From IMG/VR virus record IMGVR_UViG_3300045988_177740: a stretch of DNA of 16,505 bases. One strand, written 5' to 3'. Made by a program: the position numbers and the translations under genes. The notes below the pieces were generated by a model, which saw only the letters and a program-made list of their open reading frames with translations, had not been told where the DNA came from and ran no database searches. Source of the stretch: a virus. This document shows, one piece after another, positions 3,167 to 16,505 of the stretch. The first letter of the stretch is position 1, and each line of letters starts with the position of its first letter.

Positions 3167-4119
3167 TATTCCACCTCTCTTTCCGGCGTATCGTTTTCTG
3201 GTGTGTTGTTTTCGTTGTTTTTTGTTGTGACAAACACATCTGGTCTGTTAATCGGCGTTACCATCTTAGAATTAAAACGTACATGGATGTTCAGACCATA
3301 CATATCATTAATAGCGTCAAGTCCTCTCTGAATGGTTGCCAGATTTCCGTTTCTTGTCAACTCAATTTCTCCATCGTTGTAACTCGTTTCCGCGGAAACC
3401 AGCCGTTCCGGTTTTTCAACGCCGCTTGCTTCGATTCCAAGGTCTGCCAGACATTCTGCTACTTCTCTCTGCGCGGCGGTGTCAAGTTCATTAAAAATCG
3501 GCTGTACTTTCAGATCAATTGTATCAATTTGAATCTGTTTTCTGAGATCGTTTTTTGCCTTAATAAATGGAATATTTTTCACCCATTTTTGAATAAAGTT
3601 GTCAATGCTGAGTTTTTGAGTGCTATCTCCGCTGATAACAACTGGTGTTCTCTGCTGTATAACGTTTACCCTTGTGGACGCTTTCTTCTCTGCCAAACTC
3701 TGCGCGTGTAAAATAATGCTGAGTATTTCTGGTACAGCAAAAGGTCTTGCGAAAATCAGCGCGCTTTCTTCCTTATCTGTCTGTTCATAATACTGACCAT
3801 TCATAGCATAAGCAATCCAATCGGTCGGTATACCATAAATATCTGGTTCGCCAACCAGATTAACGCCAAAAACGCCAAACAGTCCGGTGATCGGCTCTTT
3901 TTTGAACAGACACATTCCATGCCATAACAAATAGGAATTGAGCATACGTGGCGGAATCTCATCCGGTAAACCGTCATATTCATAGCGTGATAATGCAAGA
4001 TTTACGAACTTGTCAAAAAAGTGCCGAAAATACAGCTTTTCTTCTGGTGATGTATTCGGATTTTTTTCCCATTGTCCCCATACTTCTTTGTTGCTCACTC
4101 GATACGGGTTAGGATACAT
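3166..4119 (-). CDS. Portal / upper collar connector (phi29 gp10-like)
   Basis: 317 aa with a GGAGGTGA ribosome-binding site. The C-terminal half recalls phi29 gp10: EKPERLVSAETSYNDGEIE matches EKKERMVTDEVSSNDEQIE, and MYGLNIHVRF matches LYGLNVKVKF (phi29 sequence from memory). Confidence 0.88.
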   Translation of the reverse strand: MYPNPYRVSNKEVWGQWEKNPNTSPEEKLYFRHFFDKFVNLALSRYEYDGLPDEIPPRMLNSYLLWHGMCLFKKEPITGLFGVFGVNLVGEPDIYGIPTDWIAYAMNGQYYEQTDKEESALIFARPFAVPEILSIILHAQSLAEKKASTRVNVIQQRTPVVISGDSTQKLSIDNFIQKWVKNIPFIKAKNDLRKQIQIDTIDLKVQPIFNELDTAAQREVAECLADLGIEASGVEKPERLVSAETSYNDGEIELTRNGNLATIQRGLDAINDMYGLNIHVRFNSKMVTPINRPDVFVTTKNNENNTPENDTPEREVE

Positions 4120-4131
4120 GTTATCACCTCC

Positions 4132-5697
4132 TTAATCATTGGAAAGTCCATAGTTTCCAACATCGTTCGTGTGCCAAAACGTAACACCGCGGTTAAACAT
4201 AGCCTGCAAAAAGTTGATATCATCGGTGACGCATGCTCCATGCAATCCGCAGTTTACCGTTTTGACAAAATTCCAGCTTGATCGTCCTGTTATATTCGGC
4301 ACTTTGATTCTATGCGTTGCATATCCGTACATGGTGAAATAATCGTCAATTACTTTCGCCATTTCCGGAGTTACACACATGGTCTTTAATGTAATCGTAT
4401 TACTAAAAAGCGCAGTCTGAACATAACTTCCAGTAGCACTTCCTTTTGCTGTAGGCGGAATTAAATCGTGTTGCTCCATCTGTGCTGAAATATTTTCACC
4501 AAACATAAAATTGCTTGCTGTCTGACCGATACTGCTTTCGATGGCTTTTCCGAAATTACCGCTTAATACGTTTGCAATGGTTGATACAACACTTTTTCCA
4601 GTATCAAGATACTGCTGTTTTGTCTGATAATCCCATATAGGTTGAGACTGTGCCAGCCAGGCTTGATAAGCGTCATTTGTCCACGCGCAGGTAGGAAAAT
4701 TACTATAAGTAAATGCATATGGCGTATTATCAGTAGGTTCATTTTTGTAATTTTTTGGATATACGTATATAGACGGAATATTTAATTTTACGCCTTGTGC
4801 GCCAAAAGCTATTTTTTGGTTGTTGAAGTATTCGAGTCGGTACGCATATTGTGTTCCATCGTGCGCATCTGCAATTAAATACGAAAATGGATATTGAAAT
4901 AGTTTTTTATTTTTTGGAGTATAGCCAGCTAGCGTTGTTGGGAAATTCATGGTAAAGTTTTGTGGACTTGCAGAAAAGCATAAAGCAGGTGCTTGAAAAA
5001 TGGATACAATAGCGTCTGCATTTCCGCTTTTAGCATAGGCTTGAATTTTTTGTTTCATGGTAGCAAAATCTGTAGTGTTAAAATAAGTCAAACCAGACAT
5101 TATTTTTTGATTTAATTCCGGTTCCAATGCAACGCCATTTTCATCCGCACTGGCAATAAGACAATAGTTCATAAGACCAAAACCCATGCCAGCGGAACCA
5201 TTTACAATGTATTCTCCAGTTTCCAGATTTTCGGGGACTAGATTCGCACCTACTGCGTCATCTTTTTTCGCAACGTGTTCTCGCTCTACATAGCACGGTT
5301 GAAGTGCCACATCGTAAAAACTGTTCTGAAAACGATCGGGTTCGAAATAAATCTTGAAACTTCCGTCACTCAACCATTCTACGTGCGTCACAAACCCGAA
5401 ATACCATTCTTCCGTATACGGTTTATTCTGGAAAGCAATGTAATTGCATTTCAAAAACTCACTTTCATTCCCTTTTCCTTTATACGTCAATTCGCCCCAT
5501 CGTACTGGGGCAGACTGTTTAAACGTATGAATAGCTTTTTCTTTTACATGCGCCAGACAACCTGCTTTTCCATTTTCGTAGTATCTTACATGTTCGTAGT
5601 CATTTCCCCATTCAATTCCACTAGCCAAAATAACCGTAGTCTGCGGGGAAACTGCCGCCACATTGGACTGCGGCGGCATCGGAATAAAGGAATCCAT
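4132..5697 (-). CDS. Tail knob / distal tube protein (phi29 gp9-like)
   Basis: The long ORF begins with GTG at 5706, but the ATG at 5697 sits 5 nt after GAGGTGG, so 5697 is preferred. It lies between capsid and portal as in phi29. The N-terminus (VILASGIEWGNDYEHVRYY) recalls the gp9 N-terminus. Confidence 0.6.
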   Translation of the reverse strand: MDSFIPMPPQSNVAAVSPQTTVILASGIEWGNDYEHVRYYENGKAGCLAHVKEKAIHTFKQSAPVRWGELTYKGKGNESEFLKCNYIAFQNKPYTEEWYFGFVTHVEWLSDGSFKIYFEPDRFQNSFYDVALQPCYVEREHVAKKDDAVGANLVPENLETGEYIVNGSAGMGFGLMNYCLIASADENGVALEPELNQKIMSGLTYFNTTDFATMKQKIQAYAKSGNADAIVSIFQAPALCFSASPQNFTMNFPTTLAGYTPKNKKLFQYPFSYLIADAHDGTQYAYRLEYFNNQKIAFGAQGVKLNIPSIYVYPKNYKNEPTDNTPYAFTYSNFPTCAWTNDAYQAWLAQSQPIWDYQTKQQYLDTGKSVVSTIANVLSGNFGKAIESSIGQTASNFMFGENISAQMEQHDLIPPTAKGSATGSYVQTALFSNTITLKTMCVTPEMAKVIDDYFTMYGYATHRIKVPNITGRSSWNFVKTVNCGLHGACVTDDINFLQAMFNRGVTFWHTNDVGNYGLSND

Positions 5698-9307: not shown

Positions 9308-9588
9308 ACGTCCACCTCCTTATCATTCCATTTCAACCAGTCCTCGATTTCACTTAATTTATCACACATAATAAAATTATGAATAAAGCGGACTGGCGAT
9401 TTACTGTTATACGCGTTGCCATCCATGAAAAAGAAATCCCACAAATACCGGATGTGAGACTCGTAATTTTCATTAGGGACAATGATCAACGTGTCTTTTT
9501 CGTCCTCTTTATAGCGTACCGTATAAGCAAGATAAGCATTTTCTTTTTTCATCATTCCGACAATCATATTAAAAACGATACTTGCCAT
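9298..9588 (-). CDS. Hypothetical protein (96 aa), first gene after the 9729 promoter
   Basis: The ORF track starts it at 9612, but the ATG at 9588 lies 5 nt after AAAGGAG (9600-9594). The ATG at 9612 has no ribosome-binding site and directly abuts the structured RNA. Confidence 0.6.
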   Translation of the reverse strand: MASIVFNMIVGMMKKENAYLAYTVRYKEDEKDTLIIVPNENYESHIRYLWDFFFMDGNAYNSKSPVRFIHNFIMCDKLSEIEDWLKWNDKEVDVWM

Positions 9589-9612
9589 CTTTGCTCCTTT
9601 CTTCCTGTCCAT

Positions 9613-9694
9613 TAAAACAAGGAAACCTTTTGACCTGCCAAGGACAGGGCGGTTTACTCAACCGTGGCAACCCCTTTTTAAAAGGTTTCCCCGT
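9613..9694 (-). ncRNA. Structured RNA element of about 80 nt: either a 5' leader or a small RNA (candidate pRNA-like or regulatory RNA)
   Basis: It starts just after the promoter at 9701-9729. The outer helix pairs 9692-9680 with 9631-9619 (11 Watson-Crick plus 2 G:U pairs). Two inner helices pair 9670-9665 with 9640-9635, and 9664-9660 with 9654-9650. The element is followed by UUGUUUUAAU. Confidence 0.4.
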
Positions 9695-9700
9695 ATTTTC

Positions 9701-9729
9701 ATGATACAGCTTTTTTATCCGTATGTCAA
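9701..9729 (-). promoter_or_regulatory. Strong sigma-A-type promoter
   Basis: On the minus strand: TTGACA (9729-9724), a 17-nt spacer, then TATCAT (9706-9701). It lies 25 nt downstream of the ATPase stop. Confidence 0.65.
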
Positions 9730-9753
9730 GTACATTTGTCCGTCTCCCACGAA

Positions 9754-10893
9754 CTATTTATAAAGATCAATCCCTAGTAACTCAACCGCCATATTCTTGC
9801 TGTCTAGATCGTCAAACCGCAAATATGCTTTGCGGTATGCGTCAACTAGATTTTCAAACAAATAATCATAGTGTTCCAACATAACCGTGTTTTGGGTATG
9901 ATCACCGTCCCGAAAAACCGCGACAAATTTACAAGACGGGTTATAGTTATGCGTAATATAGATGTACCCCTCTTCGTAATACTCATACACTCCATAACTT
10001 TTTCCACTATGCTCGATGGTGAACAGATACCGCGACCGTCCGGTCGGCTTTTGTACAAACACGGCATCATCAATCAACATCTGATCTCCAACACTCATGC
10101 TTTGCATATAGTGTCCGCCGCGGAATGCTTTCAAAGCAGTATTCTCCCACATGGCTTTACTGGCACTGTCATTGTGAGTAAACTCACACACAAAACCGCT
10201 CCCATGCAGCATTTTTGTTTCTTTCTGGTATCTCTTATGGATACCAAAAAATACAAAATAGGGATTGAGCAACGAAATATTATTGGATGACATTACCAGT
10301 TTAAACCATCGGGACTGACTTCCGTTTCCGCGGCTGATCGTCAATAGCAACGATTGCAGTTTTTCAGATTCCCCTTTTACGTATTGTCCGCTTTCCATGC
10401 TGAACTCGTCAAAAAACAAAAAGTAGATATCCCGAAAATACGGAGATAATTTTTTTACACTGTCCATCTTACTTCCAAAACTAAACGCGCATCCGAATGG
10501 CACGCCGTCCAGAAAATACCGCACAACATTTCCGTTTTTGTCCAGATTTTTATAGGTAATCACACTTCCTAATTTAGGATACATTCTTAGCATATCTTCG
10601 TACATTGCCGCCGCTCCCGTCATTTCCCCTTTCGTCCGGAAAATCCATCCGGTCTGCAATCCGTACTCTTTGCACAAGATACAGCTTGCCGCGGCGAACG
10701 CACTTGTCTTTCCGGCGCTACGGTTGGAACACGTAATTGCCACTCCAGCGAAATCCCCGTCCACGTCCGGCTCTGAAAACAACCGAATCGGATTGTAATA
10801 CTGAATCGCTTTCCCGTTATCGTCTACCGCTTCAAATTTCACATTATATTCAGCAAAAAGTTTTTCCCATTGAATATCGTTCCAAAAAATCAT
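9754..10893 (-). CDS. DNA packaging (encapsidation) ATPase, phi29 gp16-like
   Basis: 379 aa. It has a Walker A motif (SNRSAGKTSA) and a Walker B motif (IYFLFFDEF). The size and motif spacing fit gp16-type small-podovirus packaging ATPases. Confidence 0.85.
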   Translation of the reverse strand: MIFWNDIQWEKLFAEYNVKFEAVDDNGKAIQYYNPIRLFSEPDVDGDFAGVAITCSNRSAGKTSAFAAASCILCKEYGLQTGWIFRTKGEMTGAAAMYEDMLRMYPKLGSVITYKNLDKNGNVVRYFLDGVPFGCAFSFGSKMDSVKKLSPYFRDIYFLFFDEFSMESGQYVKGESEKLQSLLLTISRGNGSQSRWFKLVMSSNNISLLNPYFVFFGIHKRYQKETKMLHGSGFVCEFTHNDSASKAMWENTALKAFRGGHYMQSMSVGDQMLIDDAVFVQKPTGRSRYLFTIEHSGKSYGVYEYYEEGYIYITHNYNPSCKFVAVFRDGDHTQNTVMLEHYDYLFENLVDAYRKAYLRFDDLDSKNMAVELLGIDLYK

Positions 10894-10922
10894 TGTTTCA
10901 CGTGAAACATTTTTGTTTCACG
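10894..10922. promoter_or_regulatory. Perfect 16-bp palindrome TGTTTCACGTGAAACA (10894-10909) plus an extra half-site TGTTTCACG (10914-10922), abutting the ATPase start codon
   Basis: Read directly from the sequence. An identical 20-nt element recurs at 14300-14319. The only ribosome-binding site (GGAGGG, 10928-10923) lies 29 nt from the ATPase ATG. Confidence 0.5.
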
Positions 10923-10980
10923 CCCTCCTTTCTTCTTTTTTCCCGCTCCGCGTTACCACGGTTATCTGAATCTCTAACGT

Positions 10981-11043
10981 CCCGCCAGTTCCCCGCCAGC
11001 AAAACCGCAGACAATCTCACGTTTATCGCACGATAATCGCACG
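10981..11043. promoter_or_regulatory. Direct repeats phased at 11 bp: CCCGCCAG twice and ATC(G/T)CACG three times
   Basis: CCCGCCAG occurs at 10981-10988 and 10992-10999. ATCTCACG occurs at 11014-11021, and ATCGCACG at 11025-11032 and 11036-11043. Every spacing is exactly 11 nt. Confidence 0.45.
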
Positions 11044-11088
11044 TTTTGATTGCAGATGGACGGCGGGAAAGGCAGAGCTACGCTGGGT

Positions 11089-11123
11089 ATAAAAAGAGCT
11101 ACGCTGGAAAACGTAGCTCTTTT
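11089..11123 (-). terminator. Rho-independent terminator downstream of the 139-aa gene
   Basis: The minus-strand RNA reads AAAGAGCUACG-UUUUCCAG-CGUAGCUCUUU followed by UUAU. The stem is 11 bp with an 8-nt loop, and the U run reaches 5 when the stem Us are counted. Confidence 0.7.
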
Positions 11124-16049: not shown

Positions 16050-16284
16050 ATTTATTCCATTTAATATTACACACATATTCATTCTGCCCATTGTCCGCCA
16101 CCCACGGACACTTTAGCAGACTAAAGTGAGTCCCCTTTTCGGAAGTGTCCGCGACCCGCGGACAAACTGGCGGTTTCGCCCACTTTTCGGGCAAAATGAG
16201 TTAATAAAACAAAAGAATTGTGTGTGGATCGGGAGGAAAACGTGAATAATTGTGGAATTGTATAGACAATTAGACGAGACTAAC

Positions 16285-16313
16285 ACTTTAGTCGGGTAAA
16301 GCGTTTTTGTCAA
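16285..16313 (-). promoter_or_regulatory. Mirror copy of the ITR promoter, reading inward in the same direction as all genes
   Basis: On the minus strand: TTGACA (16313-16308), a 17-nt spacer, then TAAAGT (16290-16285). Confidence 0.4.
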
Positions 16314-16394
16314 GTTGGTAAAATGCATAAAAATTTCGGGCATATGTGTTGTAATAAGTATTAAAAAGTGAACAAATGCAATGAAATAGTTTGC

Positions 16395-16432
16395 AAAAGC
16401 GGTGTCTTTCCCTGGCGGACACCGCTTTTTTT
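16395..16432 (+). terminator. Mirror copy of the ITR terminator hairpin
   Basis: Same hairpin as 74-111. Here the U7 orientation is on the plus strand, facing outward. The inward (minus-strand) orientation has only U4. Confidence 0.35.
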
Positions 16433-16505
16433 GTGCAATGTGCTGTCCGCCGTACGCGGACAAAATTGGGAAAATGTCCGCGTGGGACGGACTATATATA
16501 TGTTT

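Follow-up and report, generated by a model that had tools for sequence, protein, structure and literature searches.

The 16,505-nt stretch of DNA analysed here (IMG/VR virus record IMGVR_UViG_3300045988_177740; "the window" denotes the whole of it) is a complete linear phi29-like phage genome bounded by inverted terminal repeats, in which the minus strand carries all large open reading frames (ORFs), the named genes included. Our subject is a structured RNA of about 80 nt encoded on this strand between the gene for a gp16-type DNA-packaging ATPase and the lysis and structural genes, which we compare with the prohead RNA (pRNA) of phi29. Read along the minus strand, the genome encodes a protein-primed-type DNA polymerase, small ORFs and the ATPase, followed by the intergenic RNA region; then come a 96-aa ORF, holin, endolysin and tail lysozyme genes, and the structural genes in the order phi29-type major capsid protein, gp9 tail knob, gp10 connector, lower collar and tail protein. 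Pfam matches were obtained for the ATPase (PF05894), the connector (PF05352) and the capsid protein (PF25622).

An initial annotation, made from the letters alone, had described a promoter followed by a three-helix RNA at this place, and all of its elements were found again on the minus strand where it had put them. The features of the locus, including the revised central fold and the Shine-Dalgarno (SD) sequence of the next gene, are as follows.

9754..10893, minus strand: gene for a phi29 gp16-type DNA-packaging ATPase, 379 aa (Pfam PF05894 Podovirus_Gp16, E = 9e-28); the RNA gene lies directly 3'
9738..9754, no strand assigned: imperfect operator-like palindrome GTCCG-N7-CGGAC (one mismatch); it shares bases with the stop codon of the ATPase gene, and 8 nt separate it from the -35 hexamer downstream
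9701..9729, minus strand: promoter of the sigma-A/sigma-70 type, TTGACA (9729-9724), 17-nt spacer, TATCAT (9706-9701); 11/12 match
9680..9694, minus strand: helix A, 5' strand (ACGGGGAAACCUUUU), starting at the putative transcription start; 15 bp with 9617-9631
9676-9679, minus strand: junction linker AAAA, preceding the C helix
9672..9675, minus strand: C helix, 5' strand AGGG; pairs with CCCU 9646-9649
9665..9671, minus strand: 7-nt 5' bulge GUUGCCA, equivalent of the pRNA CE (right-hand) loop; its UGCCA is complementary to UGGCA of the D loop; 99% conserved
9650..9664, minus strand: E hairpin CGGUU-GAGUA-AACCG with a GNRA-like loop (GAGUA/GAGAA in the window clade, GAGA in deep lineages)
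9642..9649, minus strand: shared strand CCCU-GUCC, i.e. C helix 3' strand (9646-9649) and D stem 5' strand (9642-9645); in the alternative pairing, CCUGUCC (9642-9648) pairs with GGACAGG
9632..9641, minus strand: D hairpin, loop UUGGCA (9636-9641) and 3' stem GGUC (9632-9635); equivalent of the pRNA D (left-hand) loop
9617..9631, minus strand: helix A, 3' strand (AAAAGGUUUCCUUGU); 99.7% conserved
9611..9616, minus strand: U-rich linker UUUAAU after helix A, possibly a region of weak termination or the 3' end of the RNA; variable in both length and sequence, with indels
9604..9610, minus strand: GGACAGG, partner of CCUGUCC, 3 nt upstream of the SD; window clade only
9586..9600, minus strand: start of the first gene of the lysis/structural block, read from the sequence, with SD AAAGGAG (9594-9600) and start codon (9586-9588); a 91-96-aa ORF is kept in relatives

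The promoter would start transcription at about A9694. It had been called the best match in the window: the site is there, but its 11/12 score is shared with two other TTGACA sites, and five promoter-like sites in the window reach this value. Across 74 distinct relatives, conservation reaches 100% in the -35 hexamer and 98% in the -10 hexamer, and averages 80% over the 17-nt spacer (minimum 5% at one position). The palindrome just upstream occurs nine times in the window against 0.22 copies expected, and is also found upstream of the -35 hexamer in six of the related loci that were compared, which are denoted here by L-numbers (L086-L089, L257 and L258 in this case; L081 is Clostridium phage HM2 and L082 is phage CS229P1).

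14-30, 45-61, 343-359, 397-413, 9738-9754, 16093-16109, 16147-16163, 16445-16461 and 16476-16492: copies of GTCCG-N7-CGGAC, four in each terminal repeat and one at the RNA promoter

This palindrome is a candidate operator for a phage-encoded regulator; alternatively, it may belong to the replication origin. Since it adjoins the -35 hexamer and recurs eight times in the terminal repeats, it suggests that the RNA promoter may be controlled by a phage DNA-binding protein.

A conserved RNA with two mutually exclusive pairings

A DNA search of the RNA region against 50,697 phage records gave no match, i.e. the region has no DNA-level relative among the deposited phages. At the protein level, the ATPase is closest among cultured phages to that of Clostridium phage HM2 (43% identity), and shares 34% with the Clostridium symbiosum phages CS229P1-3 and 25% with phi29 gp16. 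About 100 close relatives with ATPases 93-99% identical were found in IMG/VR, with human-gut metagenomes indicated as their origin where sample information exists, and a profile of the ATPase family retrieved at least 511 relatives from the same source. A metagenome scan for ATPases of intermediate relatedness returned window-clade contigs and one distant match (23% identical) only.

The RNA region is present and strongly conserved in the close relatives: in 74 distinct intergenic versions the strands of the RNA are 97-100% conserved, above the level of the end of the ATPase ORF. Compensatory changes, looked for in an alignment of 79 distinct sequences (the window clade and relatives with 69-87% ATPase identity), support helix A, with both sides changed in 6 of its 15 pairs, and the E hairpin, with both sides changed in 3 of 5. 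For instance, U9661-A9653 becomes C-G in 12 sequences, with U-G intermediates, and G9662-C9652 becomes U-A or A-U. These covariation values were reached by none of 500 shuffles, and the signal was lost when the partners were slid by 1-3 columns. The closing helix of the initial annotation is therefore real, although it comprises 15 bp (9694-9680 with 9631-9617) instead of the 13 that had been drawn; the pairing of CGGUU (9664-9660) with AACCG (9654-9650) around a GAGUA loop was correctly described. Thermodynamics alone is unremarkable, with a minimum free energy (MFE) of -32.7 kcal/mol, a z-score of -1.98 and 6 of 200 shuffled sequences folding equally well. One hairpin of the MFE fold, CCUGUC/GGCAGG, was rejected, since U9646 changes to C with no change in its MFE partner. 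On the strength of the alignments, the element is confirmed as a selected RNA structure.

The middle of the RNA had been drawn with a helix between UUGCCA (9670-9665) and UGGCAG (9640-9635). This complementarity exists, but it does not covary and is better read as pairing between a bulge and a loop than as an ordinary helix. The fold that emerges is a three-way junction made up of (i) helix A, (ii) a C helix with the 7-nt 5' bulge (G)UUGCCA, capped by the E hairpin, and (iii) a D hairpin with a loop complementary to that bulge. The evidence comes from deep relatives found via protein look-ups (L090/L096, L092 and L093/L094; ATPase 46-49% identical), which carry an RNA of equal length with a common core. 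When these were aligned by MAFFT without structural guidance, the C helix and the D stem fell into register, both with compensatory changes. The C helix reads AGGG/CCCU in the window, UGGG/CCCA in L096, AAGG/CCUU in L093 and ACGG/CCGU in L092. The D stem has four positions and a 6-nt loop in every lineage, with both sides changed in 3 of the 4 pairs: GUCC[UUGGCA]GGUC in the window, GUCU[..]AGUC in L087-L089, GGUC[AUGGCA]GGCC in L092 and GCGC[AAGGCG]GCGC in L096.

A covariance model of the junction finds exactly one site in the window as well as all window-type relatives. In the alignment fitted to this model, with the deep lineages included, both sides have changed in 22 of the 28 junction pairs (14 of 15 in helix A), and 92.2% of the cells are paired as compared with 83.1% after shuffling. 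In L092 the three-way junction is itself the MFE fold. RNAalifold applied to the MAFFT alignment with the deep lineages yielded an uninformative consensus of invariant pairs, helix A and the tetraloop lineages being one column off register. Scanning IMG/VR with a pattern for the GAGA-loop core brought up the known deep lineages and random GC-rich matches, with no new one among them.

The strand shared by the C helix and the D stem has a second partner. As the initial annotation had noted, the 9-nt CCCUGUCCU (9649-9641) contains a 7-nt complement of GGACAGG (9610-9604), which follows the tail UUGUUUUAAU (9620-9611). This pairing covaries as well: across the 79 sequences U9646-A9606 is replaced by C-G in 11, by U-G in 2 and by G-U in 1, U9644-A9608 is U-A in 58 and U-G in 21, and C9642-G9610 is U-A in L088 and L089. 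Here, too, none of 500 shuffles came up to the values observed. Counted from the end of helix A, the partner begins after 4-6 nt, and 0-4 nt separate it from the SD; it forms 7 bp in the window, 6 bp in L087 and 8 bp in L088, the duplex being worth about -14 kcal/mol; the pairing is weaker in L258 (4 bp) and absent from L092, L093 and L096. An ATG (9612) that overlaps GGACAGG is not conserved, and the constraint on this motif therefore acts on RNA and not on coding.

Because both draw on the strand CCU-GUCC, the pairing upstream of the SD (pre-SD pairing) and the C helix/D stem exclude each other, and the alignments give the impression of two alternative states, each of them maintained. L008 has gained one pair in the D stem and lost two in the pre-SD helix. 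The long-range helix is hard to reconcile with a fully stacked helix A, whose 15 bp a linker of 6 nt would have to bridge; the difficulty would be lifted if the arm could fold back at the 9-nt/3-nt internal loop, or if the paired strands belonged to different molecules. The SD itself stays unpaired throughout. The third proposal of the initial annotation, a translational switch acting through the bulge and the region next to the ribosome-binding site, thus retains its covarying pairing, but the latter is confined to the window clade and overlaps the junction pairings, which suggests an alternative conformer and not a simple occlusion of the ribosome-binding site. Sequestration of the SD by UUCCUU of helix A was rejected, as 6 bp cannot compete with the 15-bp helix.

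In the deep lineages L090-L096, the SD that serves the late genes is set off from the RNA by a tRNA-like structure, which has an acceptor stem of 7 bp plus a T arm (GGTTCGATTCC or TTCGAATC).

L090/L096 ~2733-2830, L092 ~3797-3880 and L093/L094 ~3859-3935: tRNA-like elements directly after the RNA

ARAGORN does not call these elements of L090-L096 as tRNAs. With an acceptor stem and T arm following directly, the arrangement resembles that of small RNAs freed from a precursor by RNase P/RNase Z acting at an adjacent tRNA-like element; such an element may be a processing signal that releases the RNA and would then give it a defined 3' end. The window differs in this respect, as it contains no tRNA or tRNA-like element. 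A true tRNA-Val stands at the equivalent position in L112.

ATPase-adjacent RNAs in other lineages

RNAs of other sequence, occupying the same place, were found in two further groups of phages, which together take in dozens of lineages from Clostridium and the gut.

L081 (Clostridium phage HM2), 6103-6192: HM2-type RNA, directly 3' of the ATPase gene, same strand
L082 (CS229P1), 4055-4168: CS229-type RNA, directly 3' of the ATPase gene, same strand

HM2 and eight related lineages have an RNA of 84-90 nt after the ATPase gene. The HM2 promoter (TTGACC-17-TAAGAT) has its -35 hexamer in the last ATPase codons, and TTGAC-type -35 hexamers are likewise found in the ORF ends of the relatives. In the MFE fold of this type, a C helix bearing a 5' bulge, an E hairpin and a D hairpin accompany helix A, which begins at the putative first transcribed nucleotide, as it does in the window clade and in L096. 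A strong hairpin with a U-run (recognized by eye) follows the RNA, and then a new promoter for the next genes. The CS229P1-like lineages carry an RNA of 109-117 nt (GGUAUCU...AGAUAUA), 0-30 nt after the ATPase stop codon, at the 3' end of the ATPase transcript unit; a leader role is impossible here, the neighbouring gene being convergent. Compensatory changes affect 13 of 18 pairs in the long helix A of this RNA, and its MFE folds give the junction layout directly; from the alignment of this type, RNAalifold recovered nothing but helix A.

In both of these types the complementary bulge and D loop differ from lineage to lineage (GUAGUC/GACUAC, AACUA/UAGUU, AGACA/UGUCU, UGACU/AGUCA, ACGC/GCGU, UUGCA/UGCAA, UAACA/UGUUA and CUGUA/UACAG). 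The longest Watson-Crick run between bulge and D loop averages 3.73 in matched as against 2.29 in mismatched combinations, and none of 5000 permutations was as high. Interlocking loops that covary, together with this sequence of elements, are the defining traits of phi29 pRNA.

A structural descriptor of the pRNA layout was then applied. Its strict form missed the window RNA because of a U.U mismatch in the D stem; the relaxed form is crude and separates signal from controls only at high scores, at which (26 or more) it detected the layout in 22 of 53 lineage clusters immediately 3' of the ATPase gene, compared with 2/54 and 3/54 inside the ATPase ORF and 0/53 on the reverse complement. The window gave the top score, and 9617-9694 is the only strong site in its genome. 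RNAs of the sister types are spread over many IMG/VR loci in the range L095-L176. The ATPase-adjacent RNAs are unannotated in the deposited records of HM2 and CS229P1, and we found no description of them in Rfam or in the literature searched.

The window-type RNA and those of the HM2- and CS229P1-like phages are thus alike in their position 3' of the ATPase gene, in the layout of the junction and, broadly, in size (84-117 nt in the sister types). They differ in sequence, in that the bulge/loop pair of the sister types is variable and covaries, and in that these types have no pre-SD partner; moreover, the HM2-type RNAs are discrete genes with their own promoter and terminator. Three gene arrangements were encountered, in each of which the RNA stands next to the ATPase gene, and the comparison of gene orders indicates that it is this gene, and not the downstream operon, to which the RNA is linked. 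Since the Rfam pRNA family RF00044 matches none of the three, and the covariance model of the window type neither of the other two, their common descent, or descent from phi29 pRNA, is unproven, and convergence of the three types on one layout is possible.

A possible pRNA-like role and its alternatives

To our knowledge, pRNA is the only RNA component of a viral DNA-packaging motor, and it is widely used in RNA nanotechnology. Reviews of 2016 and 2024 describe it as known only from Bacillus phi29-like phages (PMC5066667, PMC11476376). In a survey of 2025, an Infernal search seeded with Bacillus phage pRNAs is reported to have yielded 12 more, at least five of which are from Bacillus phages (PMC12670572). 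The same text gives as hallmarks of pRNA the loop pairing, a three-way junction, a CCA bulge and a conserved G, and takes as a criterion that the RNA is encoded in a phi29-like genome along with the motor ATPase (gp16) and the channel/connector (gp10) (PMC12670572). The window encodes a gp16-type ATPase and a gp10 connector, together with the capsid protein and a protein-primed-type polymerase, between terminal repeats. Its RNA forms a three-way junction with a C/E arm and a D arm on helix A, with the reservations of a U.U mismatch and of an equally stable fold in cis. As in phi29 pRNA, the paired ends constitute helix A, the elements follow one another from 5' to 3' as A, C, 5' bulge, E hairpin, C, D hairpin and A, and the 5' end coincides with the promoter start (the putative one in the window); the bulge and the D loop are complementary over 5 nt here and over 4 nt in phi29.

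Taking these similarities into account, we favour a small, compact pRNA-like RNA that acts together with the ATPase encoded next to it, a function that would follow by analogy; we give this reading even chances. Among the three possibilities raised by the initial annotation, that of a small RNA or compact pRNA analogue is the one best backed by comparative evidence, as an RNA of pRNA layout follows the ATPase gene in many lineages; a match to RF00044 did not materialize.

Transcription from the conserved promoter would start at about 9694, and the first 78-83 nt would fold into the compact three-way junction. By analogy with pRNA, the RNA would act with the gp16-type ATPase in the DNA-packaging motor: the bulge/loop complementarity may join neighbouring copies in a ring on the prohead portal, or close a tertiary contact, and helix A may offer a docking site for the ATPase. 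Unlike in its relatives, in the window lineage neither a terminator plus promoter nor a tRNA-like element parts the RNA from the next operon, so that read-through past the weak U-run could yield transcripts carrying GGACAGG. This motif would pair with CCUGUCC and displace the C helix and D stem, leaving the fold that had been drawn earlier. Only the short RNA, terminated or processed, would then adopt the motor-competent fold, while the mRNA leader would be held in the other conformer beside the ribosome-binding site. A wider proposal can be built on this, namely that DNA packaging depends on RNA in other phi29-like phages besides those of Bacillus, that miniature prohead RNAs of at least three unrelated-looking sequence types, all placed directly behind the ATPase gene, occur in many, mostly uncultured, phi29-like phages of Clostridia and the human gut, and that in the window lineage the RNA is also the leader of the late operon, toggling between junction and pre-SD pseudoknot and thereby coupling pRNA supply to late expression; we put this forward tentatively, and consider it somewhat less probable than its negation.

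Several observations weigh against a pRNA-like role. An Rfam 15 covariance-model scan of the entire window gave no family at E <= 1, RF00044 and the riboswitch, leader and ribozyme families included; a scan of 16 loci with sister RNAs gave chance matches only, with RF00044 absent at E <= 10; and the covariance model of the window-type RNA matched neither the HM2 type nor the CS229 type at E <= 10. (A small ribozyme, e.g. a hammerhead-like one, was rejected as there was no Rfam match and no CUGANGA core motif was seen in the RNA.) At about 80 nt compared with 120-174 nt for pRNAs, the window RNA is a third shorter than the 120-nt active phi29 pRNA, and its helix A is an uninterrupted 15 bp without a CCA-type bulge, relatives having at most a single bulged U. 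The D stem of the window has only three pairs, with the U.U mismatch at the second position, and the earlier drawn fold (-28.7 kcal/mol) and the junction (-28.0 kcal/mol) are equally stable. Although UGCCA/UGGCA can form 5 bp in the window and 4 bp in L092, L093 and L096, its GCC/GGC core is invariant in all lineages, and for this reason the bulge/loop pair of the window type is not distinguishable from an ordinary helix in cis. Where U9646 has become C, 11 sequences compensate for it in the pre-SD partner but only 3 in the C helix. In the clade L114-L141 the ATPase stop codon directly abuts the next ORF, and no RNA follows the gene. Furthermore, no pRNA is evident in asccphi28, a phi29-like phage whose ATPase assembles in the absence of such an RNA (PMC7823558), so that a gp16-type ATPase does not by itself require RNA. 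The window RNA also departs from pRNA in its invariant loop pair (within its own type), its fusion to an mRNA leader and its alternative pairing; in its place in the genome, between ATPase and lysis genes in the middle, as opposed to an early promoter near the left genome end in phi29; and in host range, the window-type and sister RNAs belonging to Clostridia and gut phages and pRNA to Bacillus phages.

The main rival is a purely cis-regulatory 5' leader, in which the structure and the pre-SD pseudoknot would modulate, for the first late gene, either the initiation of translation or the processing of the mRNA, and no RNA would act in trans. In the window clade the SD and start codon do lie within 30 nt of the RNA with no promoter between, and the pairing that such a leader would use is stable, covaries and keeps its position in L087-L089. 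Yet the SD is never sequestered, the RNA of L090-L096 has no pre-SD partner and is parted from the SD by the tRNA-like element, and the sister-type RNAs, which precede a terminator or a convergent gene, cannot be leaders. A leader would also leave unexplained the deep conservation of the junction and its fixed place after the ATPase gene, and we consider this explanation unlikely, while taking it more seriously than the two that follow.

In an attenuation or antitermination model, helix A and the U-run would stop most transcripts from a constitutive promoter, and read-through into the late genes would depend on a phage factor, which might recognize the GNRA-like hairpin. The near-consensus promoter, the long helix from +1 followed by UUGUUUU, the GNRA-like GAGUA/GAGA loop and the operator-like palindrome just upstream of the -35 hexamer all suit this model. 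The last but one feature recalls lambda nut boxB and HK022 put, where a small hairpin with a GNRA-like penta- or tetraloop likewise lies just downstream of a strong phage promoter, and lambda N binds boxB; neither a boxA-like element nor an N-like protein was identified in the window, in which no search aimed at antiterminator proteins was made. A nut- or put-type RNA must be part of the transcript it controls, a position that fits the window clade but neither the HM2-type RNAs, with their terminator and new promoter, nor the CS229-type RNAs, with their convergent neighbour. The view that the structure is too elaborate for a simple intrinsic terminator was borne out: it is not a canonical one, and the terminator scan does not list it, because the stem encloses a branched domain (of 50 nt) and has a G.U-rich base. 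Furthermore, the U-run is not conserved (UUUGAU in L088 and L089), and the covarying partner lies downstream of it and therefore cannot control termination. The attenuator suggested in the initial annotation has accordingly found little support, and we think it improbable. Still less probable is a 5'-terminal stabiliser. Stem-loops at the 5' end protect Bacillus mRNAs from 5'-end-dependent decay, and helix A, beginning at the putative +1, could shield the late mRNA in this way; a simple hairpin would, however, suffice for this, with no need for a conserved junction, a bulge/loop complementarity, a GNRA-like loop or linkage to the ATPase gene across gene orders.

With so few Bacillus phages known to carry it, pRNA has been hard to study as regards its origin and necessity. 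Should the packaging role hold, pRNA would extend well beyond the Bacillus phages, and dozens of independent and much smaller natural versions (~80-115 nt) with varied interlocking loops would become available, providing a test of the minimal motor RNA and a way to ask why some phi29-like ATPases (asccphi28) manage without RNA. Even if this role is wrong, the locus encodes a well-supported, previously undescribed structured RNA with two mutually exclusive, covarying pairings.

Other features of the genome

The inverted terminal repeats are very long among phi29-like phages; that of phi29 itself measures 6 nt.

1-419 and 16087-16505: inverted terminal repeats (419 nt, 99% identical), each with a TTGACA-17-TAAAGT promoter-like site and a terminator-like hairpin

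A 646-aa gene with a GDSL-lipase-like domain closes the late block at its 3' end, and three tandem direct repeats of 300 nt (100%, 98% and 83% identity) within this gene extend over 1051-1950. On the other side of the RNA, upstream of the ATPase gene, a strong hairpin with a U-run (AAAGAGCUACG...CGUAGCUCUUUUU) is present at 11085-11118 (minus strand). It is followed by about 170 nt of non-coding sequence with repeated CTGGCGG motifs (10915-11084, minus strand) before the ATPase ribosome-binding site, and no obvious promoter for the ATPase gene was seen in 10915-11118.

A 14-nt palindrome, GTTTCACGTGAAAC, is present in 172 of 265 loci, across very distant clades. In the window (10895-10908, minus strand) it forms part of a 6-codon mini-ORF (ATGTTTCACGTGAAACAATGA, 10910-10890) that ends in a stop codon overlapping the start of the ATPase gene (its start codon). 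In CS229P1 and L142 the palindrome is located after the ATPase stop codon and before the RNA, and it is found in or near the hairpin after the RNA in L084 and L103, with near-copies in L101 and L102. In the clade L114-L141 it precedes a tRNA-like sequence located just upstream of the ATPase gene (e.g. L114 1375-1470).

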